Counted from the first letter of the stretch, positions 264-31,659 are shown. The stretch: 31,668 bases of DNA from Anaerolineales bacterium (GCA_033577755.1 JAVQXV010000018.1:1-31668), one strand, 5' to 3'. Notes: generated by a model from the sequence alone, not told the origin. Program-made: numbers and translations.

Positions 264-1664
264 ATGCCGCAAACGCTTTTTGAAAAAATCTGGAATCAAC
301 ACGTCGTTGCGCAGGAGCCGGACTCGCCGGCCATCCTGTATATTGACCTGCACCTCGTCCACGAAGTGACCTCGCCGCAAGCTTTTGCCGGATTGCGCCG
401 GCGCGGTCTGCGCGTGCGCCGCCCGGATAAAACTGTGGCCACCTTAGACCACAGCATCCCAACTCATAGCCCCGACCTGCCCATCCTCGATGAGATGGCG
501 GCCAAGCAAATTCAGGTCATGGAGGACAACTGCCGCGAGTTCGGTATCCGCTTGTACGGCTTGCACTCACCACAGCGCGGCATCGTCCACGTCATCGGGC
601 CGGAGCTGGGGCTGACGCAGCCGGGCATGACCATCGTCTGCGGCGACAGCCACACTTCTACGCACGGCGCGTTCGGCGCGCTGGCATTCGGCATCGGCAC
701 CAGCGAAGTGGAGATGGTGCTGGCCACCCAGTGTCTGTTGCAGCGCAAGCCGAAGACGTATCAGGTGCACGTCGAAGGCCGGCTGAACCCCGGCGTATCG
801 GCCAAGGACATCATCCTCGCTTTGATCGCGAAGATTGGGGTGGGAGGGGGCACCGGCCACGTCTTCGAGTACACCGGGCCGGCCATCCGCGCGCTGACGA
901 TGGAGCAGCGCATGACCATCTGCAACATGAGCATTGAAGGTGGCGCACGTGCCGGCATGGTGGCTCCCGATGACACGACCTTCGAGTATCTGGCCGGGCG
1001 CGAGTATGCGCCGAAGGGCGCGGCCTGGGACGAAGCCGTAGCACGCTGGCGCCGGTTGCCCACCGATGAAGGCGCAACATACGACAAGTCCGTCACCCTC
1101 AACGCTTCCGAACTGGAGCCGATGATTACCTACGGCACCAACCCCGGTATGGGTATGCCCATCACCGGGCGCGTGCCTGACCCGGACACGGTGGCTGATG
1201 CCAATCAAAAACTAGCTCTGGAGAAGGCGCTCAAGTACATGGACCTGCGCCCCGGCCAGCCACTGCTTGGCCATCCGATCAACGTCGTCTTCATCGGAAG
1301 TTGCACCAACTCCCGCATCTCCGACCTGCGCCAGGCCGCCGAACTGCTGCGTGGCCGTAAAGTCGCGCCGGGCGTGCGGATGCTCGTCGTCCCCGGCTCA
1401 CAGGCGGTGAAGCGACAGGCCGAGGCGGAGGGGCTGGACAAGGTCTTTCTGGAGGCCGGGGCGGACTGGCGCCATGCGGGCTGCTCAATGTGCATCGCTA
1501 TGAACGGCGATCAGTTGCAGCCGGGCGAGTACGCCGTGAGCACCAGCAACCGCAACTTCGAGGGCCGGCAAGGCAAGGGCGGGCGCACCTTCCTCGCCTC
1601 GCCGCTCACCGCCGCTGCCGCCGCGATCACCGGCAAGATCACGGATGTGAGAACACTCCTTTGA
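264..1664 (+). CDS. leuC: 3-isopropylmalate dehydratase large subunit LeuC. The ORF track starts at a GTG at 201; homology supports the ATG at 264.
   Basis: Near full-length similarity to E. coli LeuC. Aconitase-family motifs are present ([17 protein letters not shown], three Cys ligands SCTNSR/GCSMC). Confidence 0.93.
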
Positions 1665-1764
1665 TTTCAGCTTGCCGATTTCTGATTGTTGATTTGAACT
1701 GACAATCAGCAATCAGCAATCAGTCAGCAATCAGCAATCAGAAATCAGAAATCAGAAATCAGAA
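1663..1764. repeat. Heptamer tandem array filling the leuC-leuD spacer. A GATTTCT/GATTGTT arm is followed by an inverted (C/A)AATCAG x ~9 arm, so a long hairpin is possible.
   Basis: Read directly: caatcag x2, tcag, caatcag x2, aaatcag x4, running into the leuD ATG. The upstream gatttctgatt is the exact reverse complement of aatcagaaatc. Confidence 0.85.
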
Positions 1765-2349
1765 ATGCCCCAATTTACTACTCTGACCTCTCGCTTGGTT
1801 GCGCTGCCGATCAACGACATTGACACCGACCAGATTATCCCGGCGCAATTCCTGAAGGTGACCGACAAAGCCGGGCTGGGCAATGCACTCTTCTTCAACT
1901 GGCGCTACAACGCCGACGGCTCGCTCAACCCTGACTTTGTACTGAACCGGCCTGAAGCGCAGGGCGCGCAGATCCTGCTGGCCGGCGACAACTTTGGCTG
2001 TGGCTCGTCGCGCGAGCACGCGCCCTGGGCGCTTACAGCCTACGGCTTCCGTGCCGTCATCAGCACCTCCTTCGCCGACATCTTCCGCGGTAACGCCCTG
2101 AAGAACGGCTTGCTGCCCATCATTGTGGACAAGGCCACGTATGCCGAGTTGCTCGAGCTTGCCGCCAAAGCACCGCAGGCCGAACTGACCGTAGACCTCG
2201 AAGCGCAAACCCTAACGCTGCCCGACGGCCGTGCGGTCACTTTCCCGATAGACGCCTTCTCGAAAGCGTGTCTGCTCAAAGGCACGGACGAGCTGGGCTA
2301 TATCCTGTCGTTTGAAGACCGCATCGCCGCCTACGAAGCGACCCATTGA
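1765..2349 (+). CDS. leuD: 3-isopropylmalate dehydratase small subunit LeuD
   Basis: LeuD-family motifs ([17 protein letters not shown]). Follows leuC directly. Confidence 0.92.
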
Positions 2350-2377
2350 CGGTTTGATGTTCAGGTGATTGCAAGCC

Positions 2378-2426
2378 CTCAACTCCCAATGTTTCAATCC
2401 CCAAATGACACAATGATCCAAATCTA
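2378..2426. repeat. CAAnnnC-type 7-8 nt tandem array (caactcc caatgttt caatccc caaatgaca caatgatc caaatc) overlapping the 5' end of the cimA ORF.
   Basis: Read directly. It encodes the dubious N-terminal extension MIASPQLPMFQSPNDT in the track ORF. Confidence 0.6.
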
Positions 2427-3969
2427 CGACACCACCCTCCGTGACGGCACACAACGCGAAGGCATCTCGCTCTCCTGCGCCGATAAGATTCGCATCGCGC
2501 AGAAGCTCGACGAGCTGGGCGTGCACTTCATCGAGGGCGGCTGGCCGGGGAGCAACCCCAAAGATGCCGAATTTTTCGAGCGAGCGCGTGACCTGAACTG
2601 GCAGCACGCGCTGATTGCGGCCTTCGGCTCGACCTGCCGCGTGGGCGGGGGGCCGGATGATGACGCCAACATCCGAGCACTGCTGGAGGCGCGCACGCCG
2701 GTTTGCACTCTCGTCGGTAAGTCGTGGACGCTGCACGTGACCGAGGTGTTGCGCACCACGCTGGACGACAACTTGCGCATCATCGAGCAGAGCGTGGCCT
2801 ATCTGCGCGCACATGGGCGGCGCGTCATCTATGATGCCGAACACTTCTTCGACGGCTACAAGGCCGATCCGGTGTATGCGCTCGAGACGTTGCGTGCGGC
2901 GCTGCGCGGTGGCGCGGAGATCGTGGTGCTGTGCGACACGAACGGTGGCTCGCTGCCGTGGGAGGTTGGCGAAATTTGCCGGGCGGTGCGCGAGCAAATC
3001 GCCTTCCCGTTCGGCATTCACACGCATAACGACGGTGAGTGTGCGGTGGCCAACACTCTGGCCGCCGTGCGCGAGGGCGCCATTCAGGTGCAGGGCACCA
3101 TCAACGGCTATGGCGAGCGCTGCGGCAACGCCAACCTGTGTTCTGTCATCCCCGATCTCGAATTGAAACTCAATCTGCGCTGCCTGCCCGAAGGCCGCCT
3201 CAGCCTCTTGTACGACGTATCCCACTTCGTCGCCGAGGTCGCCAACCTGGCGCCGGACGAGCATTTGCCCTACGTCGGCAAATCGGCGTTCGCGCACAAG
3301 GGCGGCATTCACGTGGCGGCCATGCGCCGCAATCCACGGTCATATCAGCACGTCGAGCCGGAGAAGGTCGGCAACCGGATGCGCGTGGTGGTCAGCGAGC
3401 TTTCCGGGCGCGGTAACCTACTCAGCAAGGCGGAAGAATACGGTCTGGAGTTCGAGCACGGCGATGAGGTGGCCAGCGTCCTCAATGAGATCAAACAATT
3501 GGAAGCGCAGGGCTTCGCCTTCGAGGCCGCCGAGGCGTCGGTGGCGCTGATGATGAAGCGACAGGAGCCGACGTACGTCGCGCCGTTCGAGCTGATTGAC
3601 TTCTCGGTGAACGTCGAGCACCGGCGCGGGCGGGGCATCTTTGCCGAGGCGACGGTGAAGGTGCGCGTGCCCGGCCACGATGAAGTGCTTCATACCGCCG
3701 CCGAGGGCAACGGCCCGGTCAACGCGCTCGACAAGGCACTGCGCAAGGCGCTGACGCCGCACTACCCGGTGCTGAGCAAGTTCCAGCTCGCCGATTACAA
3801 GGTCCGCATCCTCGACGGCAATAACGGCACCGCAGCAATGACGCGCGTGCTGATTGATACACAGAACGGGACCAAACGCTGGACGACGGTGGGCGCCAGC
3901 ACTAACATCATCGAGGCCAGCTGGCGCGCGCTGGCGGACGCGCTGGAGTATGGGTTGACGATGGCGTAG
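2413..3969 (+). CDS. cimA: LeuA-family DRE-TIM metallolyase, most likely (R)-citramalate synthase CimA. The start is probably the ATG at 2413; the track ORF begins at 2365.
   Basis: N-terminus IQIYDTTLRDGTQREGISLS...IEGGWPGSNPKD matches the Geobacter/Leptospira CimA clade rather than canonical LeuA. Length ~520 aa with a C-terminal regulatory domain. Confidence 0.7.
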   Translation: MIQIYDTTLRDGTQREGISLSCADKIRIAQKLDELGVHFIEGGWPGSNPKDAEFFERARDLNWQHALIAAFGSTCRVGGGPDDDANIRALLEARTPVCTLVGKSWTLHVTEVLRTTLDDNLRIIEQSVAYLRAHGRRVIYDAEHFFDGYKADPVYALETLRAALRGGAEIVVLCDTNGGSLPWEVGEICRAVREQIAFPFGIHTHNDGECAVANTLAAVREGAIQVQGTINGYGERCGNANLCSVIPDLELKLNLRCLPEGRLSLLYDVSHFVAEVANLAPDEHLPYVGKSAFAHKGGIHVAAMRRNPRSYQHVEPEKVGNRMRVVVSELSGRGNLLSKAEEYGLEFEHGDEVASVLNEIKQLEAQGFAFEAAEASVALMMKRQEPTYVAPFELIDFSVNVEHRRGRGIFAEATVKVRVPGHDEVLHTAAEGNGPVNALDKALRKALTPHYPVLSKFQLADYKVRILDGNNGTAAMTRVLIDTQNGTKRWTTVGASTNIIEASWRALADALEYGLTMA

Positions 3970-3971
3970 AG

Positions 3972-4047
3972 GGTGATTGGAGATTGAAGATTGAAGACTG
4001 AAGACTGAAGACCGCACGGCCATTAGTCTTCAGTCATTAGTCATTCA
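3972..4047. repeat. Heptamer array GATTGGA/GATTGAA x3/GACTGAA x2, followed by its inverted copy (tagtcttcagtcattagtcattcag). This is a hairpin between cimA and leuB.
   Basis: Read directly. gaagactgaagac pairs with gtcttcagtc. It ends at the leuB RBS (agaggag) and TTG start. Confidence 0.85.
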
Positions 4048-4060
4048 GAGAGGAGCAGCA

Positions 4061-5119
4061 TTGAAGGCGCGTATTGCATTGACACCCGGCGATGGCATCG
4101 GCCCGGAAGTGGTGACGGAGGCCGTGCGCGTGCTCGAGGCCGTCGCGCACAAGCGCGGCCATAGCTTTGAATTTCATGAACACCTCATTGGCGGCTGTTC
4201 GATAGACCGCTACGGCACGGCGCTGACCGACGAGACGCTGGCCGATTGCCGGGCGGCGGACGCCGTGCTGCTGGGCGCAGTGGGCGGGCCGAAGTGGGAC
4301 GACCCGACGGCGAAGGTGCGGCCTGAGCAGGGCATCCTGGCGCTGCGTAAGGGGTTGCAGGTGTTTGCCAATCTGCGCCCGGCCAAAGCGCACCCGGCGC
4401 TGCTGGATGCGTCGCCGCTCAAGCCCGAACGGCTCAGCGGCGTGGACGTGCTCGTCGTCCGCGAACTTACCGGTGGGCTGTACTTCGGCGAGAAGCGGCG
4501 CGAGCAGGTGAACGGCCACATTCGTGCGATTGACGTGCTCGAATATCACGACTACGAGATCGAGCGTGTGCTGCGGCTGGCGTTCCGGCTGGCGCAGGGC
4601 CGGCGCCGCAAGGTGACCTCGGTGGACAAGGCCAACATCCTCGAATCCTCGCGCCTGTGGCGGCAGGTCGCCGCGCGCGTTGCGGCGGAGTTCCCGGAGA
4701 CGGCTTTTGAGAACATGCTGGTGGATACGGCGGCGATGCAGCTCGTCGCCAACCCGGCGCGCTTCGACGTGCTGGTAACCGAGAACATGTTCGGCGACAT
4801 CCTCACCGACGAGGCCGCCGTGCTGGCCGGCTCGATGGGGATGCTGCCTTCTGCCTCGCTGGGCGAGGGCGGGCCGGGCCTGTACGAACCCATCCACGGC
4901 TCCGCGCCCGATATCGCCGGCAAGGGCATCGCCAACCCGGTCGGTACCATCTTGTCTGCGGCAATGATGCTTCGCTACTCGCTCAACCTCCCCGATGAAG
5001 CCACGCTCATTGAAACTGCTGTCGAGCAGGCGATCACGGATGGCTGCCGCACCAAAGACCTGGGCGGGGCGCTCACCACGCGCGAGATGACGGACGCCAT
5101 CCTCGCGCGCTTGAACTGA
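4061..5119 (+). CDS. leuB: 3-isopropylmalate dehydrogenase LeuB (TTG start)
   Basis: Strong similarity to E. coli LeuB ([47 protein letters not shown]). Confidence 0.93.
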
Positions 5120-5148
5120 CTTGCCTGACGCAAAAGGCGCAAACCGGG

Positions 5149-5967
5149 ATGCGAGTTGCTTTTCAGGGTGAACGAGGGGCGTACTCGGAGGCGGCGGCGC
5201 TGGCGCACTTCGGGCCGGGGGTGGAGACCGTACCGCACGAGTCATTTGAGGCGGTCTTCGCCGCCGTTCAGTCCGGCGCGTGCGAGGCCGGTCTCGTACC
5301 CATTGAGAACTCGGTCGCCGGCAGCATCCATCGTAATTACGACCTGCTCCTTCAGCACTCGCTCTCGATCGTCGGCGAATATCTGCTGCGCGTGCATCAC
5401 TGTCTCATCGCATTGCCCGGCGTCCCGCTCGAAAACATCCGCAAGGTCATCAGCCATCCGCAGGCGTTGGCGCAGTGCGAGCGTTATCTCAAGTCGCTGC
5501 CCGGCGTTAGAACCGAGGTCGCCTATGACACTGCCGGCAGCGTCAAAATCGTCCTGGAGCAGGGCGATCCGACGGTGGCAGCCATCGCCTCGCGGCGCGC
5601 GGCGGAGGTCTACGGCCTATCCGTTCTAGCCGAAGGCATTGAGGACGACCCGGCCAATTACACGCGCTTCCTCGCCATCGCTCCGCAGCCGGTGCAGCCG
5701 GTGGGAGATGCCAAAACATCCATCGTGTTCACGCTGCACAACCGGCCCGGCGCGCTCTTCAGAGCGCTGAGCGTGTTTGCGCTGCGCGACATTGATCTCA
5801 CCAAGATTGAGTCGCGCCCGCTGGTCGGCAGGGTGTGGGAGTACCTCTTCTACGTGGATTTTGCCGGTGCTGCCTCCGACCCGGTGGTGCAGCGTGCGCT
5901 CGACAATCTGGCCGAGTACGCGCCGATGCTGCGGGTGCTCGGCTCCTATCCGCGCCATCGGCTATAG
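5149..5967 (+). CDS. pheA: Prephenate dehydratase (PDT catalytic domain plus C-terminal ACT domain)
   Basis: [15 protein letters not shown]-terminus, ESRP motif (TKIESRPL), ACT-like C-terminus. 272 aa. Confidence 0.85.
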
Positions 5968-6058
5968 CCTCCAAGCGCCGGGGAACTGCGCAGCGTTGGG
6001 GGACGTCAGGAGAACGCAGGCATACTCTGCTGCAACTTACAAGTGCGGGAGATGTTCC

Positions 6059-6589: not shown

Positions 6590-6594
6590 CCCGT

Positions 6595-12166: not shown

Positions 12167-12232
12167 GAGGAGATTGAAGATTGGAGATTGGAGATTGAAG
12201 ATTGGAGATTAGAGGTTGGAGAGGATGGCGCG
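12167..12232. repeat. AGATTGR heptamer x ~9 filling the entire spacer between the homoisocitrate dehydrogenase gene and lysK. It runs over the dehydrogenase stop codon.
   Basis: Read directly: agattga agattgg agattgg agattga agattgg agattag aggttgg. It also encodes the C-terminal ..SNL of the upstream protein. Confidence 0.9.
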
Positions 12233-13270
12233 GGTGATGTCTCGCAGGCTGGCGTTCCCGCCGAGGTCGCGCGTGCGGACGCCGGCGCGCAGCGTCTCGC
12301 AGACGGCGGTGCGCACGCGCTGTGCCGCTGCCGGCTGTCCGATATGGTCGAGCAGCATCGCCGCCGAGAGGATTGCGCCGACGGGGTTGGCCAGGCCCTG
12401 CCCGGCGATGTCGGGGGCGGCGCCGTGCACCGGCTCGAACACGGCAACGCTCTCGCCGAGGTTGGCCGAAGGCGCAACACCCAGCCCGCCCATCAGCGCG
12501 CCGGCTTCGTCGGAGAGGATGTCGCCGAATAGGTTGGTGGTCACAATGACGTCGAAGTTCTCCGGGTCACGCACCAATCGCAGCGCCATCGCGTCCACCA
12601 GCATCTCGTTCGTCCGAATGTCCGGGTATTCGGCGGCGACCTCGAGGCAGGTTTCGCGGAACAGGCCATCGGTAAGTTTGAAGACGTTGGCTTTGTGGAC
12701 GATGGTAACGGTGGGAGGGAGATTAGAGACTGGAGATTGAGATGAAGCTCTAATCTCCGATCTCCTTCTGGCCTGTTCAAACGCCACCCGCGTAATGCGC
12801 TCCGAGCCGCGCTTTGTAATCACGCGCTCGGCGATGGCGGTGTCGCCCTCGCGCCGTTCGCGGCCCACGTACAGGTCTTCGGTGTTTTCGCGCACGATGA
12901 GCAGGTCAACATTGGGGCGCGAGAACGGGCCGGGCAGGGAGAAGGTCGGTCGCAGGTTCGCGTACAGGTCGAACGTCCGGCGCAGGGCAAGGATCGGGCT
13001 GCGGTAGCCGGCGACGAGCGTGGAGGGGGAGGCCGTCGCCCCGAACAGGGCCACGCCCGCTGCGGCGACGTCCGCCAGCGTCTCGTCCGGGATGGCCTCC
13101 CCCGTTTTCTCGAAATGCGCAAAGCCGGCCTGCGCTTCGATGAACTTCAACCCGAGGCCGAGCGCGGCCAGCACCTCGGCGGCGGCAGGGATGACTTCCC
13201 GGCCGATGCCGTCGCCGGGGATGAGGACGATTTCTGATTTGTGATTGTGGATTGCTGATTGTGAGGCCAT
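12209..13270 (-). CDS. Homoisocitrate dehydrogenase (IPMDH family, Thermus HICDH-like). It carries a repeat-encoded N-terminal extension and a 16-aa internal insertion.
   Basis: Aligns along its length to T. thermophilus HICDH (LIVRENTE, HKANV, DVIVTTNLFGDILSDEA, FEPVHGAAPDIAG). It sits in the lys operon. Confidence 0.88.
   Translation of the reverse strand: MASQSAIHNHKSEIVLIPGDGIGREVIPAAAEVLAALGLGLKFIEAQAGFAHFEKTGEAIPDETLADVAAAGVALFGATASPSTLVAGYRSPILALRRTFDLYANLRPTFSLPGPFSRPNVDLLIVRENTEDLYVGRERREGDTAIAERVITKRGSERITRVAFEQARRRSEIRASSQSPVSNLPPTVTIVHKANVFKLTDGLFRETCLEVAAEYPDIRTNEMLVDAMALRLVRDPENFDVIVTTNLFGDILSDEAGALMGGLGVAPSANLGESVAVFEPVHGAAPDIAGQGLANPVGAILSAAMLLDHIGQPAAAQRVRTAVCETLRAGVRTRDLGGNASLRDITRAILSNL
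12711..12767. repeat. Palindromic GAGATTR array (ggagattagag ... ctctaatctcc) lying in frame inside the homoisocitrate dehydrogenase CDS.
   Basis: Read directly. It encodes SEIRASSQSPVSNLPP. This is absent from Thermus HICDH at the RPRK/TLHIAHKANV junction. Confidence 0.8.
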
Positions 13271-13300
13271 CCAGTCATCGGTCTTCAGTCATCAGTCAGA
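13231..13300. repeat. GATTTCT/GATTGTG heptamer array plus an AGTCATC-type array spanning the dehydrogenase start codon and the lysU stop codon.
   Basis: Read directly: gatttctgatttgtgattgtggattgctgattgtgaggccat..gtcatcggtcttcagtcatcagtcag. It encodes the N-terminal MASQSAIHNHKSE. Confidence 0.85.
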
Positions 13301-13837
13301 AACCCTCACCTCTTCGGTGCTCTCAATCCCCAGCCTGCGGCGCACGTGGGCGATCAGTCCGCCGGCTGCGATGATGCCGAGCGCGGTAGGCGAGAGCGGG
13401 GGAAAGGAATAGCGCCTGTTGCTCAGCTCGATAACGCTCTCTGCCAGATGGATAGTCAGCATGTCGCCGGTCTGCGCTGCGTCCACGACCTCCGGGCAGG
13501 TGATGAGCAGCAGGCCGTTGTTGAGGCCGTTGCGGAAGTAGATACGGGCGAACGACTTGGCGATGATGGCGGCGATGCCGCGATATTTCAGGCAGGTGAC
13601 GGCCTGCTCGCGCGAGCTGCCGTTGCCGAAGTTGCGCCCGGCCACGATGATGTCGCCCGGCTGCGCGCTGCGCGTGAACTCCGGGTCGAGGTCTTCGAGC
13701 GCATGGGCGGCAATCTCCGCCGGCTCACGTAGTGTGTAGGTGTACTTGCCGGGGAAGAGCACGTCGGTATTGATGCCGTCGCCGTACTTCCAGACTTTGC
13801 CGACAATGGGCATTGAGATATTGAGCGATTGAGTCAT
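13292..13837 (-). CDS. lysU: Homoaconitase / 3-isopropylmalate dehydratase small subunit, archaeal type (LysU)
   Basis: LeuD-like motifs (GKVWKYGDGINTD, GRNFGNGSSREQA). Adjacent to lysT and the dehydrogenase gene. Confidence 0.85.
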   Translation of the reverse strand: MTQSLNISMPIVGKVWKYGDGINTDVLFPGKYTYTLREPAEIAAHALEDLDPEFTRSAQPGDIIVAGRNFGNGSSREQAVTCLKYRGIAAIIAKSFARIYFRNGLNNGLLLITCPEVVDAAQTGDMLTIHLAESVIELSNRRYSFPPLSPTALGIIAAGGLIAHVRRRLGIESTEEVRVSD

Positions 13838-13850
13838 TGAGGATTGGTCT
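13811..13850. repeat. ATTGAGnn octamer x4-5 across the flotillin stop / lysU start overlap
   Basis: Read directly: attgagat attgagcg attgagtc attgagg attggtct. It encodes the lysU N-terminal MTQSLNIS. Confidence 0.7.
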
Positions 13851-15417: not shown

Positions 15418-16740
15418 CTAATCCAGCTCGCGCGGGTCGGTGATCACGCCGGTGACCGCGCTGGCCGCCACCACCGCCGGGCTGGCAAGATAGATTTCTG
15501 CTTCGGGCTGACCCATGCGGCCCTTGAAGTTGCGATTGGCCGAGGAGATACAGACCTCGCCCGGCGCGAGCACACCCATGTGGTTGCCCATGCATGGCCC
15601 GCAGCCCGGCGTGCCGAACATCGCGCCGGCCTCCAGTAACGTCTGCACATAGCCGCGCCGCACCGCCTCGCGATAGACCTCCGCCGAGGCCGGGACGATC
15701 AGCAGCCGTGCACCTGCCGCGACCCGTTTGCCCCGAATCACCTCCGCCGCCAGCGCCAGGTCTTCCAGCCGCCCGTTCGTGCAGGTGCCGATGAAGGCCT
15801 GATGGATGCGCGTGCCGCGAACCGCCGATAGCGGCTGTGTGTTGTCCACCGTATGCGGGCAGGACACCGTCAGCTCTATGGTTGAGCAATCAATGACGTG
15901 CGTCGCCACATAGTTCGCGTCCGCGTCGGGATAAATTGCGTTGGCCTGGATTTCGGATTTCTGATTTTGGATTTCTGATTGCAGGTCAATGCTACGCAAT
16001 GCGCTGTACGCCCTACGAACTCTTCTCTCGGCCAGATATTGAAAAACAGACTCGTCCGGCGGCAGATAGGCGTTCTTGGCGCCGAACTCGGCCATCATGT
16101 TGGGGATGACCATGCGGCTTTCAAGCGAGAAGGTAGCCAGCGCCGGCCCGTCGAACTCCACCGAGAGATACAGCCCGCCGTCTGCGCCGAACTTGCCGAT
16201 GAGGTGCAGGCACAGGTCTTTGGTGGTGATGCCTTTGCCAAGTGTACCGGTCAGCGTGAACTTGATGGTCTCCGGCACGCGCAGCCATAACTCGCCGGTT
16301 GCCCACAGCACGGCCACCTCGGTGCGGCCCACACCCGCCCCGAAGGCGCCCAGCCAGCCGAAGTGCGGCGTGTGCGAGTCCGCGCCGAGGATCAGCTGCC
16401 CCGGCAGGACGAGGGCCTCCTCGCTCAACACCTGATGGCAGATGCCGCGCCCGGCCTCGAAGAAGTGGCGCACGCCGTAGCGCGCGACGAACTCGCGCAC
16501 CTCGGCGTGGTTGCGCGCGTGCTGGGCAGTAGGCGCCGGCACGGCATGGTCGAGCGTGATGGCGAGCTTTTCCGGGATGGCCAGGTCCGCGACGCCGATG
16601 CTTTTGAAGATTCGGTAGATGGCGGCGGTGTTGTCGTGCGAGAGTACGAGGTCCGGGCGCGCATCCACCACTTGCCCGGCCACCGTCTCGCTTAACCCGG
16701 CGGCGCGGGCCAGCGCTTTTTCCGCGAAGGTTTTGCCCAT
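15418..16740 (-). CDS. lysT: Homoaconitase / isopropylmalate isomerase large subunit, archaeal/Thermus type (LysT)
   Basis: Aconitase-family motifs (GADSHT, three Cys [25 protein letters not shown]). About 440 aa. Confidence 0.88.
15948..15984. repeat. GGATTTC/TGATTTT heptamer x5 in frame inside lysT
   Basis: Read directly. It encodes [14 protein letters not shown] in a loop of the large subunit. Confidence 0.8.
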
Positions 16741-16800
16741 AGAGGTTTCTCTCGCGAAGTGCGCAAAGGTCGCAAAGCGTTAGCGTGCTTGGCGAGAGCC

Positions 16801-18120: not shown

Positions 18121-18179
18121 AGCAATTTGATGGGTTGATAGGGTGACGCGGTGACTCTCCTTTTCAGCCGGTCACCTCA
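18121..18179. repeat. Degenerate TGAYnnGG 8-9-mer array (ttgatggg ttgataggg tgacgcgg tgactctcc) in the spacer between the homocitrate synthase gene and lysJ
   Basis: Read directly. Weaker periodicity than the other arrays. Confidence 0.4.
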
Positions 18180-19376
18180 TCACTCCAACTCAGCAACGGC
18201 GGCTTTCACGGGCAGCGGCTGGGTCAGCACCGCCTCCACAGCTTCGGCGACGCGCGCCAGCTGGGCCTGCGAGATGACGAGCGGCGGCAGGAAGCGCATC
18301 ACCGTCAGGCCGGCGGGCAAGGCGAGCACGCGATGTTCGAGCATCAACGCCTGTAGATGCGGCGTCACCTTTTGTTTCAGCTCAATCCCGACCATCAGGC
18401 CCCGCCCCCGTACCTCGCGGATGAGCGGCGATTGGATTTGCGATAGCCGTCCGATAAACCACGCGCCCAACTCGGCGGCGCGCTCGGCCAGCCGCTCGCT
18501 TTCGAGGTAGCCGATGGCGGCGAGCGCAGCGGCGCAGGCCAGCGGGTTGCCGCCGAACGTCGAGCCGTGCACCTGCGGCGCGAGCCGGCCTACGCGCTCG
18601 TTGAAGACCACCGCCCCCATCGGCAGCCCGCCGGCGATGGATTTGGCCAGGCAAAGCATATCCGGCTCCAGGCCATGGTGCGCGCTGGCGAACATCGCCC
18701 CGGTGCGCCCGAAGCCCGTCTGCACTTCGTCGAGGATGAGCAGCGCGCCGCGTTCGCGGCACAGCCGTTGCGCGCCGAGCAGGAACTCCGCCGTGCCGGG
18801 CCGCACGCCGCCCTCGCCCTGAATCACCTCCAACACCACTGCGGCGGTTTTCTCAGTAACGGCGGCCTCCAGCGCGGCGAGGTCGTTGTACGGGATGTGG
18901 GTGAAGTCGGGGACGAGCGGCTCGAACGGCTCGCGGTACTTCTTCTCCCATGTGGCCGAGAGGGCGCCCATGGTGCGGCCGTGAAAGCCGCGCATGGCGG
19001 CGATGATCTGGCGGCGGCCGGTCTGGGCGCGTGCGAACTTGAACGCCGCCTCGTTGGCCTCCGCGCCGGAGTTGCACAGGAAGACGTAGCGCATCTCGCC
19101 GGGCGCGATGCTCACCAGCTTCTCCATCAGCGCCGCACGCTTGTCGTTGTAAAACATCTCCGGCACCGAGATGATGGTGCGGGCCTGTTCGGCGATGGCC
19201 GCTGCGACGGCGGGGTTGGCGTGTCCGAGGTTGCCGGCGCCCTGCCCACCGACGCAGTCTATGTACTCATTGCCGTCGCTGTCCCACACCGTTGCGCCCT
19301 CGCCGCGCACGATGGCGAGGGGACGTTTGGTGTACAGGCCGGAGGTGAAGCGGGACTCAAGGTCTTGAATGCTCAT
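18180..19376 (-). CDS. lysJ: Class-III PLP aminotransferase (acetylornithine / [LysW]-aminoadipate-semialdehyde aminotransferase, LysJ/ArgD)
   Basis: ArgD-family similarity. The PLP Lys context is LILDEVQTGFGRTG. The ATG overlaps the upstream gene's TGA (ATGA). Confidence 0.85.
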   Translation of the reverse strand: MSIQDLESRFTSGLYTKRPLAIVRGEGATVWDSDGNEYIDCVGGQGAGNLGHANPAVAAAIAEQARTIISVPEMFYNDKRAALMEKLVSIAPGEMRYVFLCNSGAEANEAAFKFARAQTGRRQIIAAMRGFHGRTMGALSATWEKKYREPFEPLVPDFTHIPYNDLAALEAAVTEKTAAVVLEVIQGEGGVRPGTAEFLLGAQRLCRERGALLILDEVQTGFGRTGAMFASAHHGLEPDMLCLAKSIAGGLPMGAVVFNERVGRLAPQVHGSTFGGNPLACAAALAAIGYLESERLAERAAELGAWFIGRLSQIQSPLIREVRGRGLMVGIELKQKVTPHLQALMLEHRVLALPAGLTVMRFLPPLVISQAQLARVAEAVEAVLTQPLPVKAAVAELE

Positions 19377-19768
19377 GAATTTCTGATTTGTGATTTCTGA
19401 TTGCGGATTGCGCGTTTGAGATTGCGTTTTGCGGTGCGCGACGTGGCGGTGAGGATCGCCACAATCTCATCACCCTCTTTCATCAGGCTGGCCAAACGTT
19501 TTTGCGGCATGAGGCCGGCATCCACAATCAGCTCCAGCCAATACAGGGACTCGTCCACTTCTTCAATGGCGACGTCCACTTTCGAAACGAAGTCTTTCCC
19601 TGATCTCCCTCGACAGGCTGACCGGTAATTTGCTCCGACCGATGTACCGGACCGTACAAGTTGTCGGGCTAACATATCGCCGGTGCGGGGCTTGGGTAAC
19701 GCTTCGACGACTTTGATGCAGCGCAGGCCGAAAGCTTTGGTGCGCTGTTTGAGTTCCTCGGGCGTCAT
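19373..19768 (-). CDS. Four-helix-bundle protein (TIGR02436-like, the '23S rRNA intervening-sequence protein' family). Inserted between lysZ and lysJ.
   Basis: Characteristic LARQLVRSGTSVGANYRSA and WLEL motifs. The C-terminal AIRNQKSQIRNS is encoded by a heptamer array. Confidence 0.7.
   Translation of the reverse strand: MTPEELKQRTKAFGLRCIKVVEALPKPRTGDMLARQLVRSGTSVGANYRSACRGRSGKDFVSKVDVAIEEVDESLYWLELIVDAGLMPQKRLASLMKEGDEIVAILTATSRTAKRNLKRAIRNQKSQIRNS
19378..19430. repeat. GATTTCT/GATTGCG heptamer array at the 3' end of the four-helix-bundle CDS and the lysJ start
   Basis: Read directly: gaatttctgatttgtgatttctgattgcggattgcg. Confidence 0.8.
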
Positions 19769-19809
19769 GTTGCCTCCGTCTGACGAAGTGGGTGAATGTG
19801 TAGAGCCTA

Positions 19810-19845
19810 CAATCAGAAATCAGCAATCAAAAATCAGGAAATCAC
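19810..19845. repeat. (C/A)AATCAG heptamer x5 between lysZ and the four-helix-bundle gene. It covers the lysZ stop and the last 3 codons.
   Basis: Read directly: caatcag aaatcag caatcaa aaatcag gaaatcac. Confidence 0.85.
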
Positions 19846-20643: not shown

Positions 20644-20713
20644 TGGGTTATTTGGTGATGAGTCATTGAATCAATCGAACAATGACCCAATGAAACAATG
20701 AGTCAATGACTAG
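20644..20713. repeat. CAATGAnn-type octamer x ~8 filling the lysY-lysZ spacer
   Basis: Read directly: tgagtcat tgaatcaa tcgaacaa tgacccaa tgaaacaa tgagtcaa tgactag. It spans the lysY stop and the lysZ start. Confidence 0.8.
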
Positions 20714-22723: not shown

Positions 22724-22891
22724 GTGTGTTTATCGAGTAGTCAAGTAGTCGAGTGGTCAAGTGGTCAAATCGTCGAATAGTCAAGTGGTCGAGTCTTCAC
22801 GCGCCAGGCGACCAACGGTTCGCAAAATTGACAGACCACAAGACGACTGGACTACAAGACCACCAGACCAAATGACCCAATAACCAAATGA
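22724..22891. repeat. Two adjacent octamer arrays, TCRAGTRG x8 at 22735-22800 and GACCACAA-type x8 at 22830-22890. They make up the entire 168-nt lysW-lysX spacer.
   Basis: Read directly: tcgagtag tcaagtag tcgagtgg tcaagtgg tcaaatcg tcgaatag tcaagtgg; gaccacaa gacgactg gactacaa gaccacca gaccaaat gacccaat aaccaaat. Confidence 0.85.
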
Positions 22892-26454: not shown

Positions 26455-26499
26455 TAAGAGAAGACGATCGAGCGTCGGTCGCAATCGTCGGCTCCCACT

Positions 26500-27222: not shown

Positions 27223-27246
27223 CGACTTTGGCCTGCCACTTGGCGC

Positions 27247-28062: not shown

Positions 28063-28307
28063 AGCGTCAATGATGCTGCCTCTGTAGCGCGCCTTGCATC
28101 GTCGCGGGCGCAAGCTGTTCTTCGACTCACTCTTTGCAGACGGACTCCGGTGGCGCGCCGGCGCTCTTCCGGGCGCGGGCCGAAGGTCGGGTGATTGAGC
28201 GCGGCAAAGGTCGCAGCGTCTTCCCCCGGCCTCTAGGCCCGGTTATGCAGCAGGCGGTAATGGTAATGAGGGAAGTTGAGCTAATGCTGCGCCACCGGAA
28301 GGCGCTC

Positions 28308-30320
28308 TCAGACCAGATTTCTGGGCACGGTCTCCAGCCAGCTTTTCCGAAAGAACACGTTTCCGTTCAGCTTCACCGTTAACTCGAGGTCGAGGTGAAA
28401 GTCCGTCTCGGTGCTGCGGACTGCCCCGACGGAGCGAACGTGCGTCTCGTAGCCTTTCTCTTTCAGCAGGTAGTTGCACTCGTGGACGAGTTGCGCATGT
28501 GCAGGGTCGGCATGAAAGGCCGTTATCGCCAGACGCTCATCGGTGAACAGGGAGACGCCGTCGGGCAGGATGGTGGTGTCCGCGCCGTAGCTGTGCACGG
28601 TGACGCTGCCCGCCAGCACGTCCTCGGTAATGTGCCATTGCGCCTCCCCTTCGGAGTTGCTGCCCACGTTGGTCAGTTCGGGCGGCGTGGTCTTGAATGC
28701 GGGTGGGGGCAATTCGTCTGAAGGGGTGAGGGGCAGCGTGAGCCGCGAGGGGTGCGCCGGGCCGGTGTGGATGGTGAGTGTGCAGGCATAGGGCGATGGC
28801 CACAACATCGGGAAAAGGTTGCTGCCCAGCGTGAGCCGGATTCGGTGACCGGTTCGCCAACGGTAGCCCGTGACCTTGAGCGGCACGCGCACGGCGTAGA
28901 TTTCGCCGGGCGTCAGCGGCTTCGGTTCGGCGTGGCTCTCGCGGTGCGTCAGGTTGAGCGCGCCCTGCGTCACCAGCGCCGAGGTTCCGTCGGGATGCAC
29001 GTCGCACAGGCGCGCGGCAAGCGTGGCGACCGGCGCGCTGCAACTGACGTACACAGTCAGCTCCGGGAAGCCGAGAACTTCCAGTGGCTCGGCCAGCGGT
29101 TCGGTGGTGAATGTGAGCGCCAACGCTTCATCCGGGCGCTGATCGCGGGCCAGGCCGTTGGGCGCGCTGCCCCCGCCGGAGCTGAACGGGCCGGTGAGGC
29201 CCCAGGCCGGGCGGTGCGGGATTTCTGATTTTTGATTGTGGATTGCGGATTTCGGATGGAGGCCTGGGGAGTCCAAGTAGAAAGTAGAAAGTGAAAAATC
29301 GGAGGGCGGATAGGCGGCGTAGCTGCGCCACTCGCCGTTCTGCGCGGCGGGGAAGGGGTTGGGCGGCGTCCACTCGCGCAAGAAAACGGTGACCGGCGGC
29401 TCGGCCATCACCCCGTTGTCTTTGCCCTTTAGCCAATAGTCGAAGAAGCGCACCATCTCACGGAGATGGTCTAGGTTCGGGCCGGGATAGCCGTCCGCCG
29501 GGTACACGTGCCCCCAGTTGCCGATGAGGGCCTTGCGCGGCGCGTTGACGCACTGCGCCTGCATCCGCAGCACGGCGTCGGTGTAGCCGTCGTTCCAGCC
29601 GCCGATGTGGAAGAGCGCGCAGGTGATGCGCTCGTACTCCGGGGCAAGCGAGCCGCTGCGATAGTACGGGCCGTCTGTCTGCTGCCTCAGCCATTCGAGC
29701 AGCCAGGGCGGCGTCCGCTCCAGCCGCTCCTTCCACAGCGACGCCCAATTCTCCCTCACGTACTCGGCCCTGGGCGGCAGCGCGTTCATGGCCACCATGC
29801 TGACGGCGTATTGCGCCAGGTCGCTCATCGTCAGGCAGCCGCCGTAGTAGTGCACGTCCGTCAGGTAGCGGTCGTCGGTAGCGTATATGGGGATGATGGC
29901 CTTGAGGTGCGGCGGTTGTAGTTTGGCCACCTGGATGGCCGTGAAGCCGCCGTAGCTGATGCCCCACATGCCGACGTTGCCGTTGCACCACGGCTGCGCG
30001 GCCAGCCACTCCACGACCTCGTAGCCATCCTGCGTCTCCTCGGGCGTGTATTCGTCGCGCGCCAGACCGCCGCTGGAGCCGGTGCCGCGCACGTCCACGC
30101 GGCAGCCCACGTAGCCGCGCTGCGCGAAGTACGTCATCCGCGCCATGTCGCTGTTGTAGCGCCAGTCGTCTTTGCGATACGGGATCATCTCCAGAATGGC
30201 CGGGAATCTCTCGCCCGGCTCGCGCGGTATCGGCAGCCAGAGATTGGCCGAAAGCTCGACGCCGTCGCGCATCTTCAGGCGGACGTTGTGTTGGACTTGA
30301 GTGTCGTAGAGTTCAGACAT
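28308..30320 (-). CDS. CocE/NonD-family (S15, X-Pro dipeptidyl-peptidase-like) alpha/beta hydrolase. Start is taken as MSELYDTQ; the track ORF begins 6 codons upstream.
   Basis: N-terminal VRLKMRDGVELSANLWLP, a nucleophile-elbow region (GMWGISYGG) and a C-terminal beta-sandwich are typical of CocE/NonD. Confidence 0.8.
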   Translation of the reverse strand: MSELYDTQVQHNVRLKMRDGVELSANLWLPIPREPGERFPAILEMIPYRKDDWRYNSDMARMTYFAQRGYVGCRVDVRGTGSSGGLARDEYTPEETQDGYEVVEWLAAQPWCNGNVGMWGISYGGFTAIQVAKLQPPHLKAIIPIYATDDRYLTDVHYYGGCLTMSDLAQYAVSMVAMNALPPRAEYVRENWASLWKERLERTPPWLLEWLRQQTDGPYYRSGSLAPEYERITCALFHIGGWNDGYTDAVLRMQAQCVNAPRKALIGNWGHVYPADGYPGPNLDHLREMVRFFDYWLKGKDNGVMAEPPVTVFLREWTPPNPFPAAQNGEWRSYAAYPPSDFSLSTFYLDSPGLHPKSAIHNQKSEIPHRPAWGLTGPFSSGGGSAPNGLARDQRPDEALALTFTTEPLAEPLEVLGFPELTVYVSCSAPVATLAARLCDVHPDGTSALVTQGALNLTHRESHAEPKPLTPGEIYAVRVPLKVTGYRWRTGHRIRLTLGSNLFPMLWPSPYACTLTIHTGPAHPSRLTLPLTPSDELPPPAFKTTPPELTNVGSNSEGEAQWHITEDVLAGSVTVHSYGADTTILPDGVSLFTDERLAITAFHADPAHAQLVHECNYLLKEKGYETHVRSVGAVRSTETDFHLDLELTVKLNGNVFFRKSWLETVPRNLV
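29218..29317. repeat. GGATTTC/TGATTTT/GGATTGC heptamer x6 followed by an AAAGTAG-type array, in frame inside the CocE/NonD CDS
   Basis: Read directly. It encodes ..FSLSTFYLDSPGLHPKSAIHNQKSEIPHRP... Confidence 0.8.
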
Positions 30321-30401
30321 CGGTGGTCTTCCAATCAATGAGCGCTATCCGCTTTCATCCGCTCATCCGTTACTTATCCGTTGACGACAATCCGTTGCTG
30401 C

Positions 30402-30430
30402 TTGACAGCCCATTTTTTGCACTTATACTT
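30402..30430 (+). promoter_or_regulatory. Sigma-70-like promoter TTGACA - 16/17 nt - TATACT upstream of the flavoenzyme gene
   Basis: Read directly (cttgacagcccattttttgcacttatactt), ~60 nt upstream of the start at 30490. Confidence 0.45.
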
Positions 30431-30489
30431 CGCGCCAATAAGCCAGACCATGCGCAAGTAAATAACGCCGCTGCGGTTGAAGCTCTCGT

Positions 30490-31659
30490 ATGTCGAAACG
30501 CGACTACCAGTATATCGTCCTCGGCCTGGGCGGGCTGGGGAGCGCCGCTGCCTACTGGCTGGCGCGTCGCGCCGGGAGCGAGGTGCTCGGCCTGGAGCAG
30601 TTCGAGCTGGGGCACGACCGCGGCGGCTCGCACGACCACTCGCGCATCATTCGCCTCTCCTATCACACGCCGGGCTATGTGCAACTGGCGAAGGCCGCGT
30701 ATGAGGCCTGGGCAGCGCTGGAAGCCGACTCCGGCGAGAGCCTCATCCTCAAGACGGGCGGCCTCGACCTGTTCCCAGCAGGCGGCGCCATCCCGCTGGC
30801 CGACTATACCGAAAGCCTGACTGCGGCCGGCGTGCCCTTTGAGCTGCTTGACGCCGCTGAGACGAAGCGCCGCTGGCCGCAGTGGCACTTGCCCGACGAC
30901 GTGCAGGTGCTCTATCAGTCCGAGGGCGGCATCGCCCCCGCGAACCGGGGCACGGCGACTCACCGCCGAATGGCCCGCCAACACGGCGCTACCCTCCGTG
31001 ACCAATCTCCAATCTCTTATCTCCATTCCCAAAACGGCGAAATCGAAGTCACCGCTGCTGGCCAAACCTACCGCTGCGAAAAACTCATCCTCACCGCCGG
31101 CGCATGGTCAAATCGGCTGCTGGCCCATTTCGACATTCAATTGCCGCTCACCGTTACTCAGGAGCAGCTGACGTACTTCACTACGCCATATCTGGACGAG
31201 TTCGCGCCGGAGCGTTTCCCTATTTGGATTTGGATGGACGAGCCGTGCTTCTACGGCTTCCCCGTCTATGGCGAGCGGGCGGTGAAGGGCGCGCAGGACG
31301 TGGGCGGGCGCGAGGTGACCGTCGAGACCCGCACCTTTGAGCCGGACGCGGCCAACCTGCAACGGCTGTCTGCATTCTTCGAGAAGCACCTGCCGCGCGC
31401 CTACGGCCCTCCGCTGCTCACCAAGACCTGCCTGTACACCCTCACGCCCGACCGCGACTTCATCATTGACGCCCTCCCCGACCACCCCAATGTCCTCATC
31501 GCCATCGGCGCAGCCCACGACTTCAAGTTCTCGTCGCTCATCGGCCGGATCCTGGCCGACCTGGCGGTGGATGGCGCAACAACGCACGACTTGTCTCCGT
31601 TCAAAATCAACCGGCCTATCCTGCAAATGGCGAACCCGCCGCGGAACTTCATGATTTGA
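30490..31659 (+). CDS. FAD-dependent oxidoreductase of the monomeric sarcosine oxidase / N-methyl-L-tryptophan oxidase (SolA/MSOX) family
   Basis: GxGxxG (IVLGLGGLGSAAAYWLA), GGSHDHSRIIR and the C-terminal DFIIDALP..HDFKFSSLIGRILADLA align to E. coli SolA. The Cys site for covalent FAD appears to be replaced (AAHDFKF). Confidence 0.8.
   Translation: MSKRDYQYIVLGLGGLGSAAAYWLARRAGSEVLGLEQFELGHDRGGSHDHSRIIRLSYHTPGYVQLAKAAYEAWAALEADSGESLILKTGGLDLFPAGGAIPLADYTESLTAAGVPFELLDAAETKRRWPQWHLPDDVQVLYQSEGGIAPANRGTATHRRMARQHGATLRDQSPISYLHSQNGEIEVTAAGQTYRCEKLILTAGAWSNRLLAHFDIQLPLTVTQEQLTYFTTPYLDEFAPERFPIWIWMDEPCFYGFPVYGERAVKGAQDVGGREVTVETRTFEPDAANLQRLSAFFEKHLPRAYGPPLLTKTCLYTLTPDRDFIIDALPDHPNVLIAIGAAHDFKFSSLIGRILADLAVDGATTHDLSPFKINRPILQMANPPRNFMI
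30995..31030. repeat. CCAATCT heptamer array (reverse complement of AGATTGG) in frame inside the flavoenzyme CDS
   Basis: Read directly: gaccaatctccaatctcttatctccattcc. It encodes DQSPISYLHS, where SolA has a different short beta-strand. Confidence 0.65.

Follow-up and report, generated by a model that had tools for sequence, protein, structure and literature searches.

AT-rich tandem arrays of 7- and 8-nucleotide (nt) units make up most of the spacers within the leucine (leu) and lysine (lys) biosynthesis operons of a 31,668-nt stretch of DNA from an Anaerolineales bacterium (GCA_033577755.1, JAVQXV010000018.1:1-31668; hereafter the window, i.e., the whole stretch that was analysed). Such arrays, a trait found clade-wide in some uncultured Anaerolineales and Thermoflexales-like Chloroflexota, are anchored to gene ends, follow a strand rule tied to gene sense, turn over between close relatives and share units among separate loci of the same genome. 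They bring a new lineage (Anaerolineales, Chloroflexota) to a known, unexplained class of repeats. The interpretation that we prefer, with confidence and doubt in about equal measure, is that the arrays arise at the DNA level by slippage, inverted copying and copying between loci, translation acting as a filter on their position and strand.

Heptamer and octamer arrays in the leu and lys operons

Arrays were sought in the window with Tandem Repeats Finder (TRF) and with an autocorrelation scan (threshold of at least 17 self-matches out of 21). TRF delineated 18 distinct arrays with periods of 7, 8, 14 or 16, and one further degenerate array was recognized by eye (13225-13267). The autocorrelation scan returned nine segments at period 7, six at period 8 and none at periods 4-6 and 9-12, which provide an internal control for local AT-richness. 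An original prediction, made from the sequence of the window, had announced at least 20 arrays; the arrays are real and their number is about 19. All the unit types that it named are present, i.e., GATTTCT, GATTGGA/GATTGAA and GACTGAA, as well as ATTGAGnn (13811-13846), CAATGAnn (20678-20710), TCRAGTRG (22736-22794) and GACCACAA (22833-22891). The GC content of the window, put there at about 67%, is 63%. No Rfam family matched the window at gathering scores.

Spacers consisting wholly or mostly of arrays separate leuC from leuD (100 nt), cimA from leuB (91 nt), lysW from lysX (168 nt) and lysY from lysZ (66 nt). Arrays also build the hacB/hicdh (21 nt) and hicdh/lysK (42 nt) spacers, the flotillin/hacB junction, the junction between lysJ and a gene encoding a four-helix-bundle protein (hereafter 4hb), and the part of the lysZ/4hb spacer that follows the lysZ stop codon (Table 1). 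The earlier statement that arrays fill almost every spacer of the two operons somewhat overstates the case: 9 of the 15 junctions are clearly array-built. The lysJ/hcs spacer is what is left, in degenerate form, of an octamer palindrome still full and intact at the same junction of a related locus (L003), and the other five junctions (leuD/cimA, leuB/pheA, lysX/lysY, hcs/hacA and hacA/flotillin) carry no array. As had been noticed, arrays run across stop and start codons: the array 12167..12222 occupies the entire hicdh/lysK spacer from TAA to ATG, together with part of the 3' end of hicdh and without any Shine-Dalgarno motif, and both the flotillin TGA and the hacB ATG (the true one being probably that at 13813) fall within octamers. 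At the ATGA overlap of 4hb and lysJ, the array lies within the 3' end of 4hb, immediately upstream. In total, 11 arrays are located in 908 nt of intra-operon spacers versus none in the six long intergenic regions of the window (2124 nt), a split for which simple arithmetic with a uniform distribution gives about (0.30)^11, or ~2e-6.

Many arrays form inverted pairs, a feature that had escaped the original prediction. The arm 1662..1700 and positions 1729-1761 in the leuC/leuD spacer form an inverted repeat of 33 nt (85% complementary), the two cimA/leuB arms one of 26 nt (77% complementary), and the arms 22736-22794 and 22833-22891 a stem that spans the 168-nt lysW/lysX spacer. The arms flanking 4hb (19376-19413 and 19810-19844) form an inverted repeat of 35 nt (83% complementary) although they are 399 nt apart.

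Table 1. Repeat arrays, the four-helix-bundle gene and the two operons of the window
Feature	Position	Strand	Support
leuC-leuD-cimA-leuB-pheA operon	201-5967	+	NCBIfam + Pfam
G/T-rich arm GATTTCT GATTGTT GATTTGA, starting on the leuC stop TGA (1662-1664)	1662..1700	+	
A/C-rich arm CAATCAG x5, AAATCAG x4, extending into the ATG of leuD (1765), without a Shine-Dalgarno motif	1702..1766	+	TRF period 7, 9.6 copies
G-rich arm GATTGGA GATTGAA x2 GACTGAA x2, 5 nt past the cimA TAG	3975..4011	+	TRF 5.3 copies
Partner arm CATTAGT CTTCAGT CATTAGT CATTCAG, followed by Shine-Dalgarno motif GAGAGGAG and leuB TTG at 4061	4021..4048	+	
Complete LysW-type lysine operon lysW-lysX-lysY-lysZ-[four-helix-bundle gene]-lysJ-hcs-hacA-[flotillin-like gene]-hacB-hicdh-lysK	23056-11123	-	NCBIfam + Pfam
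Single array TCTCCAA/TCTTCAA x6 (sense), hicdh/lysK	12167..12222	-	TRF 7.7 copies
Degenerate heptamer array in the hicdh coding sequence, encoding N-terminal extension ASQSAIHNHKSEI	13225..13267	-	
TGACTGA AGACCGA TGACTGG, whole 21-nt hacB/hicdh spacer and into the hacB 3' end	13271..13298	-	TRF period 7
Octamer array CAATGACT CAATCGCT CAATATCT CAATG (sense), across the flotillin stop and hacB start	13811..13846	-	TRF period 8/16
In-frame array in hacA	15947..15980	-	
lysJ/hcs spacer, degenerate GGTGACCG / GGTCACC hairpin	18121..18179	-	
Four-helix-bundle / 23S rRNA intervening sequence (IVS) protein gene (4hb), in the loop between two arms	19373..19768	-	TIGR02436, PF05635
A/C-rich arm CAATCCG CAATCAG AAATCAC AAATCAG AAAT, 3' end of 4hb, abutting the lysJ ATG	19376..19413	-	
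G/T-rich arm TGATTTT TGATTGC TGATTTC TGATTGT, starting on the lysZ stop codon	19810..19844	-	TRF
lysY/lysZ spacer, octamers TCATTGnn x4-5 after TAG, then inverted TCAATGAC	20644..20710	-	TRF period 8/16
Octamer arm CTTGACCA/CTCGACTA x7 (sense), ending 12 nt short of the lysX ATG	22736..22794	-	TRF 7.4 copies
Octamer arm TCATTTGG ... TCTTGTGG (sense), starting on the lysW TAA	22833..22891	-	TRF
Two in-frame arrays in the S15/CocE-type peptidase gene: AATCCGA.. encoding HPKSAIHNQKSEIP, and TTTCTAC x3	29220..29296	-	TRF
In-frame CCAATCT array in the FAD oxidoreductase (DAO) gene	31002..31025	+	TRF

Arrays in related genomes

We surveyed the DNA flanking LysJ, for up to 10 kb in either direction, in 80 species-representative genomes, and likewise that flanking Hcs in 80 metagenome contigs (about 20 kb per genome). 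Removal of duplicates left 156 sequences (the window and 155 loci with L numbers; 1.85 Mb). In the first set together with the window (about 1.2 Mb), period 7 accounts for 124 arrays and period 8 for 25, versus 2, 13, 4, 3 and 0 arrays at periods 5, 6, 9, 10 and 11, respectively. The second, independent set (686 kb) contains 73 and 17 arrays of periods 7 and 8, versus 0-10 for each other period. De-duplication gave a total of 225 arrays in 67 of the 156 sequences, and the contig names of the array-bearing sequences (SPAdes-, MEGAHIT-, OPERA- and 'contig_'-style) point to several assemblers and studies.

Short repeats in metagenome-assembled genomes (MAGs) may raise the suspicion of an assembly artefact or of chance low-complexity sequence, and 7-nt units within coding sequences could shift the reading frame as in phase-variation (contingency) loci; explanations of this kind are barely credible here. 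The arrays are shorter than 100 nt and occur in 66 independently assembled sequences obtained with several assemblers, and the control periods are empty, which refutes both artefact and chance. Absence from independent assemblies had been put forward as grounds to abandon the original prediction, and the outcome speaks for the observation. Phase variation was rejected on anatomy; in addition, the genes concerned are housekeeping biosynthetic genes, the coding arrays do not change between L023 and L088, and no unit changes were seen at more than 99% identity.

No arrays were found in the surveyed loci of cultured Anaerolinea, Bellilinea and Leptolinea and of several high-GC MAGs. The lys junctions of these array-free relatives measure from -4 to about 40 nt and carry Shine-Dalgarno motifs, versus 40-170 nt at the same junctions of array-bearing genomes, indicating that the arrays are additions to an ancestrally compact operon.

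The units are very diverse. A GATT core is present at least twice per array in only 41% of the 225 arrays, and the units are partly genome-specific, so that the idea of one diversifying family is too simple. The commonest units are GATTGCT, GATTGTT, GATTGGA and GATTTGC; none of these contains a G-tract, and few arrays are of the GGGATTT type. Taken together, the arrays, with octamers in the minority, show all the features of the heptanucleotide class of long simple-sequence repeats (LSSR of 5-11 nt, STRR-like; three or more head-to-tail copies), i.e., an excess of tandem period 7, many and mainly intergenic loci, and variation between relatives.

Hairpin spacers composed of 9-10-nt tandem units (CACGAATnn, CGCGAATTn, CGCAAAGGn) with inverted copies also occur, in the lysJ/hcs spacers of L004, L008 and L009, the lysZ/lysJ spacers of L015, L024 and L027, the lysY/lysZ spacers of L021 and L026 and at 16741-16800 of the window; the tandem-plus-mirror-image design is therefore not confined to periods 7 and 8. 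The operon junctions of this clade are also insertion hot spots, at which different extra genes or GC-rich segments occupy one and the same junction in different genomes. Large gaps are found, e.g., between lysZ and lysJ (437 nt in L016, 706 nt in L023), hacA and hacB (768 nt in L026) and hacB and hicdh (485 nt in L015), and a 125-nt segment sits in the loop between two array arms in L024 (11183-11310).

Placement, strand rule and translation signals

The 149 arrays of the first set and the window include 102 at co-directional junctions, 28 in coding sequences, 6 in divergent and 5 in convergent regions, which bears out the earlier claim, and the enrichment test proposed with it, that arrays are non-random and concentrated at gene junctions. 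A start codon is found no more than 40 nt away from each of the six arrays in divergent regions, and a stop codon no more than 40 nt away from each of the five in convergent regions. The stop codon is overlapped or abutted by 62 of the 107 stop-proximal arrays; distances on the start side are broader. The type of stop codon does not seem to seed arrays, TGA accounting for 60% of array-abutted stops versus 57% overall (no enrichment).

The arrays follow a strand rule: the G/T-rich strand is in sense beside stops and the A/C-rich strand beside starts (Fisher p=1.3e-8). Many arrays are convergent inverted pairs, with the G-arm preceding the C-arm at 14 junctions and the reverse order at one. This order was rejected as proof of transcript-strand specificity, because a convergent palindrome reads alike on both strands. 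Unpaired arrays (no inverted partner within 220 nt) keep the rule (start side 24:5, stop side 28:6; p=2e-7), which ties it to gene sense.

The two strands have very different translational properties. In 98 of the 225 arrays, stops close every frame of the G-rich strand, on which start triplets number 9.7 per 100 nt. The C-rich strand is open in every frame in 133 of the 225 arrays and has 1.2 start triplets per 100 nt. Filtering by translation would account for the strand rule, and the open C-rich and stop-closed G-rich strands explain why the coding copies of GATT type are all in the AATC orientation. Using GGAG, GAGG or AGGA at -20 to -4 as the criterion, a Shine-Dalgarno motif precedes 19% of array-adjacent starts versus 40% of the others (p=0.003), in line with the earlier impression that genes next to arrays often lack one.

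Arrays within coding sequences

Four genes of the window, coding for HacA, the N-terminus of Hicdh, the S15 peptidase and the DAO oxidoreductase, carry arrays in frame, which had not been noticed before. Alignment gaps identify the hacA array as an insertion relative to the solved homologue 4nqy, and the first array of the S15 peptidase as an insertion relative to cocaine esterase 3i2f; the NCBIfam match of the Hicdh protein begins only at residue 11-14. The same HacA loop bears arrays of different units in at least seven genomes. The hicdh array (13225-13267) and the S15 peptidase array (29220-29257) are identical at 25 of 26 DNA positions. Homoisocitrate dehydrogenase and S15 peptidase, two unrelated proteins, thus share a near-identical array-encoded peptide, SAIHN(H/Q)KSEI. 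Because the A/C-rich strand is free of stops, gene callers can extend open reading frames (ORFs) through the arrays, which burden MAG annotations with spurious peptides (e.g., SAIHNQKSEI).

Turnover of arrays and sharing of units between loci

Array turnover was followed in close pairs among the fetched loci, with anchored MAFFT alignments at key junctions. Between L023 and L087 (94% DNA identity), an 81-nt array hairpin in one corresponds to a 6-nt spacer in the other; between further close relatives, an octamer hairpin shows 8-nt indels and another array a 21-nt indel, i.e., multiples of the unit. Presence or absence at 94% identity implies that each single array is dispensable. Pairs more than 99% identical exhibit no unit changes, so the arrays evolve faster than their flanks without being hypermutable. 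Orthologous junctions can be filled by unrelated units: at lysY/lysZ, we found TCATTGnn in the window, GACGACG in L003, AATCCGA in L001, GTGTGGGA in L023 and TTGCTGA in L015 and L024.

Near-identical units are shared by 23% of the within-genome pairs of arrays (more than 400 nt apart) versus 9% of the pairs between genomes, a difference reached in 0 of 1000 permutations. The arrays of the window also share the order of their units: shuffles of unit order reach the observed similarity in at most 0.6% of trials, a control that is imperfect in that a few units are not 7 nt long. Unit sharing within genomes together with shared unit order points to copying or homogenization between loci and not to local slippage alone. 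Each genome favours a unit of its own, which recurs at unrelated loci, e.g., GATTTGC in L004 and L009, GGAGATT in L059, GATTGCT in L008, L021, L024 and L105, and GTGAAAC and GCGTAAT in L027, L037 and L065. Copying between loci, a trans-acting factor or a mutational bias are all possible sources of a genome-preferred unit.

The second of these sources corresponds to a reading, to which we attach a small probability, in which each array offers a series of binding sites to a trans-acting protein with a footprint of about 7 nt, candidates being the pentameric four-helix-bundle (S23p/Avd-like) protein encoded within one hairpin, ribosomal protein S1, a cold-shock protein or a HutP/TRAP-like ring. 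Genome-specific preferred units would fit such a protein, as would a conserved core with two variable positions (TGATTnn in 41% of arrays) and the link with 4hb genes described below (arrays in 8/8 loci with a 4hb ORF versus 67/156 overall, p=0.0009, not corrected for phylogeny; heptamer arms bracketing 4hb genes in 8-9 of 11 cases); S1, Csp and CsrA have been proposed as binders of TAACTGA repeats (PMC4679880). The GATT core is absent, however, from 59% of the arrays, whose units range from GACGACG to GTGGGAGT and AAACGTG; periods of 7, 8 and 9-10 coexist, the window alone displays many unit types, and the 4hb association is confounded by relatedness and by a query derived from the window.

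Still less probable, in our opinion, is a mobile origin of the paired arrays, as copies of a small palindromic element of the REP/REPIN, MITE or IVS type that inserts at gene boundaries. Convergent arms with mirrored unit order (including a perfect 30-nt palindrome in L008), a unit order common to separate loci (also within L004), presence or absence of whole elements, and extra DNA or genes in the loops would all be expected of such an element. Against it, copies do not resemble each other in their loops, the number of units forms a continuum, single-armed arrays are numerous, and no RAYT/TnpA transposase was seen in the roughly 20 kb available per genome.

Folding of array transcripts

Spacers of the window were folded and compared with dinucleotide shuffles. 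Four of them fold into strong stems, as had been suspected of several arrays: leuC/leuD (-38.8 kcal/mol, z -5.7), cimA/leuB (-35 kcal/mol, z -3.9), lysW/lysX (-57.6 kcal/mol, z -4.5) and lysJ/hcs (-27.6 kcal/mol, z -4.0). In the leuC/leuD fold, pairing joins the stop UGA to bases located 2-10 nt ahead of the AUG. Spacers with a single arm have essentially no structure, e.g., hicdh/lysK with a minimum free energy (MFE) of -3.2 kcal/mol (z -0.7).

An RNA role of the arrays is no more than a possibility, and the main rival to the DNA-level origin is that they are selected post-transcriptional cis-elements, a serious though clearly less probable alternative. Intercistronic stems with the stop at the 5' base and the start at the 3' base could be RNase III-type processing sites, barriers to 3'-exonucleases or devices coupling termination to re-initiation, and unpaired A/C-rich arrays would be unstructured leaders for initiation without a Shine-Dalgarno sequence. 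The four stems (z -3.9 to -5.7), the pairing of the leuC UGA near the leuD AUG and the fully unstructured hicdh/lysK leader are consistent with this proposal. The depletion of Shine-Dalgarno motifs beside arrays (19% vs 40%) also speaks for it, as does the preference for transcribed, untranslated sites, seen in divergent regions (6/6 within 40 nt of a start) as well as in convergent ones (5/5 within 40 nt of a stop). Furthermore, a 4hb/S23p gene occupies a stem-loop and belongs to the family found, with heptamers, in the RNase III-excised Coxiella 23S IVS, and translational roles have been proposed for TAACTGA repeats (PMC4679880) and, in a preprint, for Nostoc heptamers.

Several results weigh in the other direction. 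Across 59 array-bearing co-directional spacers, sense and antisense strands do not differ in MFE (-38.2 vs -37.9 kcal/mol) or in the number of G-U pairs (241 vs 258), so that there is no sense-strand signature, although the scarcity of mismatches in young palindromes limits the power of this test. Per nucleotide, the presence of arrays does not make spacers more structured, and the start-proximal arm is not the longer one (5 vs 8, p=0.29). The case for a selected RNA structure thus comes down to the strong stems, and any DNA palindrome would give these. Arrays can be replaced by a 6-nt spacer at 94% identity, several are unable to pair, unit sequence is not conserved at orthologous sites, the distance to the start is broad and Rfam offers no match.

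A proposed DNA-level origin filtered by translation

Pure neutrality fails to account for the anchoring to gene ends, and pure function fails on the dispensability of the arrays, the diversity of their units and the absence of a strand signature. We infer a combination of generating processes and a filter. Replication slippage would add and remove whole units, inverted copying would produce the second, mirror-image arm, and inter-locus copying would spread the favourite unit of a genome. Polymerase slippage has been proposed before as the source of heptamer excess (summarized in PMC4679880). Arrays would then persist only where translation finds them harmless. One such place begins at the stop codon, if the stop-rich G/T strand is the sense strand; another leads up to the start codon, if the sense strand is the one nearly devoid of start and stop triplets; in-frame insertions in tolerant surface loops of proteins are the third case. 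Ancestral compact junctions with Shine-Dalgarno motifs would be inflated in this manner to spacers of 40-170 nt, leaving in the mRNA either a long stem from stop to start or a leader that is G-poor, unstructured and devoid of Shine-Dalgarno motifs. Whatever the cell might gain from the arrays, in mRNA processing, stability or coupling, would be secondary.

A number of observations sit uneasily with this scenario. Arrays per kb are about six times more frequent in short co-directional spacers than in divergent intergenic DNA and are entirely missing from the 2.1 kb of long intergenic DNA of the window, a hugging of gene ends that pure neutrality leaves unexplained. The excess of G-rich over C-rich arrays just past stops is only partly accounted for by units containing stop triplets. 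The four spacers that fold far beyond their shuffles, and the 4hb arms, complementary across 400 nt, could mean selection for pairing, and the genome-specific sharing of units could instead reflect a trans-acting factor of matching specificity. Lastly, no mechanism for inverted or inter-locus copying was identified, and the gene calls in the related loci are home-made (based on GC content at third codon positions), with approximate start positions.

A four-helix-bundle gene in the loop of paired arrays

The 4hb gene of the window lies in the loop between two heptamer arms. At the same junction in L037, both arms are present with a short loop and no gene. Complementary heptamer arms bracket a gene of this family in 8-9 of its 11 occurrences in the fetched loci, and all eight loci with a 4hb ORF carry arrays, versus 67 of 156 overall (p=0.0009, uncorrected for phylogeny). 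A 4hb gene in an array loop was also observed in L003, L004 (two copies, the second divergent), L008, L009, L013 and L021.

In the 23S rRNA IVS of Coxiella burnetii, an S23p ORF is located in the loop of a 28-bp inverted-repeat stem that is cut by RNase III, and tandem GACAGAT heptamers, whose copy number varies among strains, lie upstream of this ORF (PMC4990558). The 4hb cassette of the window (19373-19844) resembles this IVS in having an ORF of the same family in a loop, an inverted-repeat stem (roughly 28-35 bp) and adjoining heptamers. The cassette differs in that it sits between the protein cistrons lysZ and lysJ and not in helix 45 of 23S rRNA, and in that its arms are themselves heptamer arrays. 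It is accordingly an S23p-type ORF in an inverted-repeat stem-loop outside the 23S rRNA location of IVS cassettes. The likeness favours the view of the stems as substrates of RNase III and of the 4hb family and heptamers as travelling together, which is a lead and not a result.

The analogy can be extended to a wider proposal, in which we place little confidence. Paired arrays would be IVS-like stem-loop elements in mRNA spacers that spread between loci, possibly helped by loop-borne pentameric four-helix-bundle (S23p/Avd-like) proteins whose specificity sets the preferred heptamer, and RNase III would cut the stems, splitting the polycistronic leu and lys mRNAs into individual messages with short leaders free of Shine-Dalgarno motifs. 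If this were true, a single phenomenon, with a protein partner in common, would underlie the heptamers of Xanthomonas, cyanobacteria, Beggiatoa, the Coxiella IVS and Chloroflexota. The 4hb/S23p genes in hairpin loops offer a concrete, testable lead.

Comparison with known repeat systems

Knowledge of heptamers at gene boundaries dates back to 1990 for cyanobacteria, Xanthomonas and Beggiatoa having followed later; neither their function nor their generating mechanism has been established. The cyanobacterial STRR heptamers, which Mazel et al. are said to have described in 1990 from Calothrix/Anabaena, reportedly have the units CCCCA(A/G)T, TT(G/T)GTCA and CAACAGT. They are, like the arrays reported here, tandem heptanucleotides present at many loci, intergenic including within operons and of no known function. 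The original prediction had drawn this comparison, aptly as to class and placement; STRR sensu stricto differ in their units (STRR1-3) and their heterocystous cyanobacterial hosts. It had also invoked MIRUs, and this likeness fails, MIRUs being 46-101-bp units with small ORFs overlapping flanking stop and start codons, versus 7-8 nt here. REPs, which are associated with RAYT transposases, are palindromes of a fixed size of about 35 nt. REP/BIME, REPIN and MIRU elements are dispersed families which, like our arrays, are intergenic, often intra-operon, and palindromic or overlapping stops and starts, but neither REP/REPIN nor MIRU elements are built of 7-8-nt tandem units.

The closest published parallels are the GGGAATC heptamers of Xanthomonas and the GGGGA(C/T)T heptamers of Nostoc, of which 89-93% are found in intergenic DNA, chiefly where the neighbouring ORFs are co-directional (Rehm et al. 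2015, PMC4692102). These heptamers are anchored to the upstream ORF, sometimes overlapping its stop codon; their G-rich strand is the coding one past stops and the non-coding one ahead of starts, and they form 70-75 convergent inverted pairs per genome; their length and sequence vary between close species, their neighbours have no functional theme and no link to surface or virulence genes, and no function was found (PMC4692102). Period 7, a high-GC host, an AATC/GATT core, the strand rule and convergent pairs are common to both systems. In contrast, most units here lack the GGG(G) tract, so that G-quadruplexes are not an option, the units are far more diverse, with octamers and 9-10-mers alongside, whole stop-to-start spacers are filled, in-frame insertions recur at orthologous loops, and the hosts belong to another phylum, Chloroflexota.

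Direct repeats of the unit TAACTGA, known from marine Beggiatoaceae, some cyanobacteria and Bacteroidetes, end beside starts without ribosome-binding sites; S1, Csp or CsrA were proposed to bind them, with a role in translation (MacGregor 2015, PMC4679880). They resemble the arrays described here in ending a few nt from the start in 'forward' orientation, in overlapping the end of the upstream ORF in some cases, in changing by 7-nt steps between strains and in their filamentous hosts, and arrays in forward orientation that end by a start without ribosome-binding site are indeed found here. They differ in having one dominant unit instead of many and one inverted pair in 170 sets, and anchoring to stop codons, as seen here, is not described for them. 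TAACTGA is not among the top 40 unit consensuses of our survey, although no search dedicated to it was run. For Nostoc, a preprint reports heptamers beside start codons, proposing a translational role with effects that it leaves unresolved.

The statement that no described family matches is thus correct for the exact units, whereas the class and its placement rules have been published (PMC4692102, PMC4679880). Because the units differ, the arrays are not STRR sensu stricto, TAACTGA repeats or the G-quadruplex family. A literature search for heptamer or tandem repeats in Chloroflexi/Anaerolineae returned no relevant paper. CRISPR was rejected on anatomy, and intrinsic terminators were rejected as well, the stems being AT-rich and directly followed by the next start codon instead of GC-rich with a T-run. 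The occurrence of the same placement and strand rules in a fourth, distant phylum argues for a general cause over a lineage-specific regulator. The clade provides an unusually dense comparative set, in which most junctions of the essential leu and lys operons are affected, array-free sisters are available, gain and loss are visible at 94% identity, and one protein loop retains arrays while their units change.

Host and other features of the window

The nearest relatives in the scanned genome and metagenome collections share 88% (LysJ) and 85% (Hcs) amino-acid identity with the proteins of the window, placing the putative host among uncultured Anaerolineales (Chloroflexota). A look-up of the exact LeuD protein gave no record. 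In the 'leu' operon, citramalate synthase (cimA, 2365-3969; TIGR00977, 736 bits) takes the place of leuA, and a prephenate dehydratase gene (pheA, 5149-5967) closes the operon, which suggests a combined unit for isoleucine (citramalate route), leucine and phenylalanine. In the list of ORFs, extension through the stop-free strand gives lysW 154 amino acids (aa), versus about 54 aa for the real protein.

A flotillin-like SPFH/Band-7 gene (493 aa; 13834-15315, - strand) separates hacA from hacB in the window and is also present in L009; in most relatives, hacA is directly followed by hacB. This gene has its own Shine-Dalgarno motif, with the octamer array at its 3' end. It also contains a GC-rich 33-nt tandem repeat (14178-14241; 1.9 copies, 83% matches), which has no relation to the AT-rich arrays; in the protein, it would give a repeat of 11 residues.

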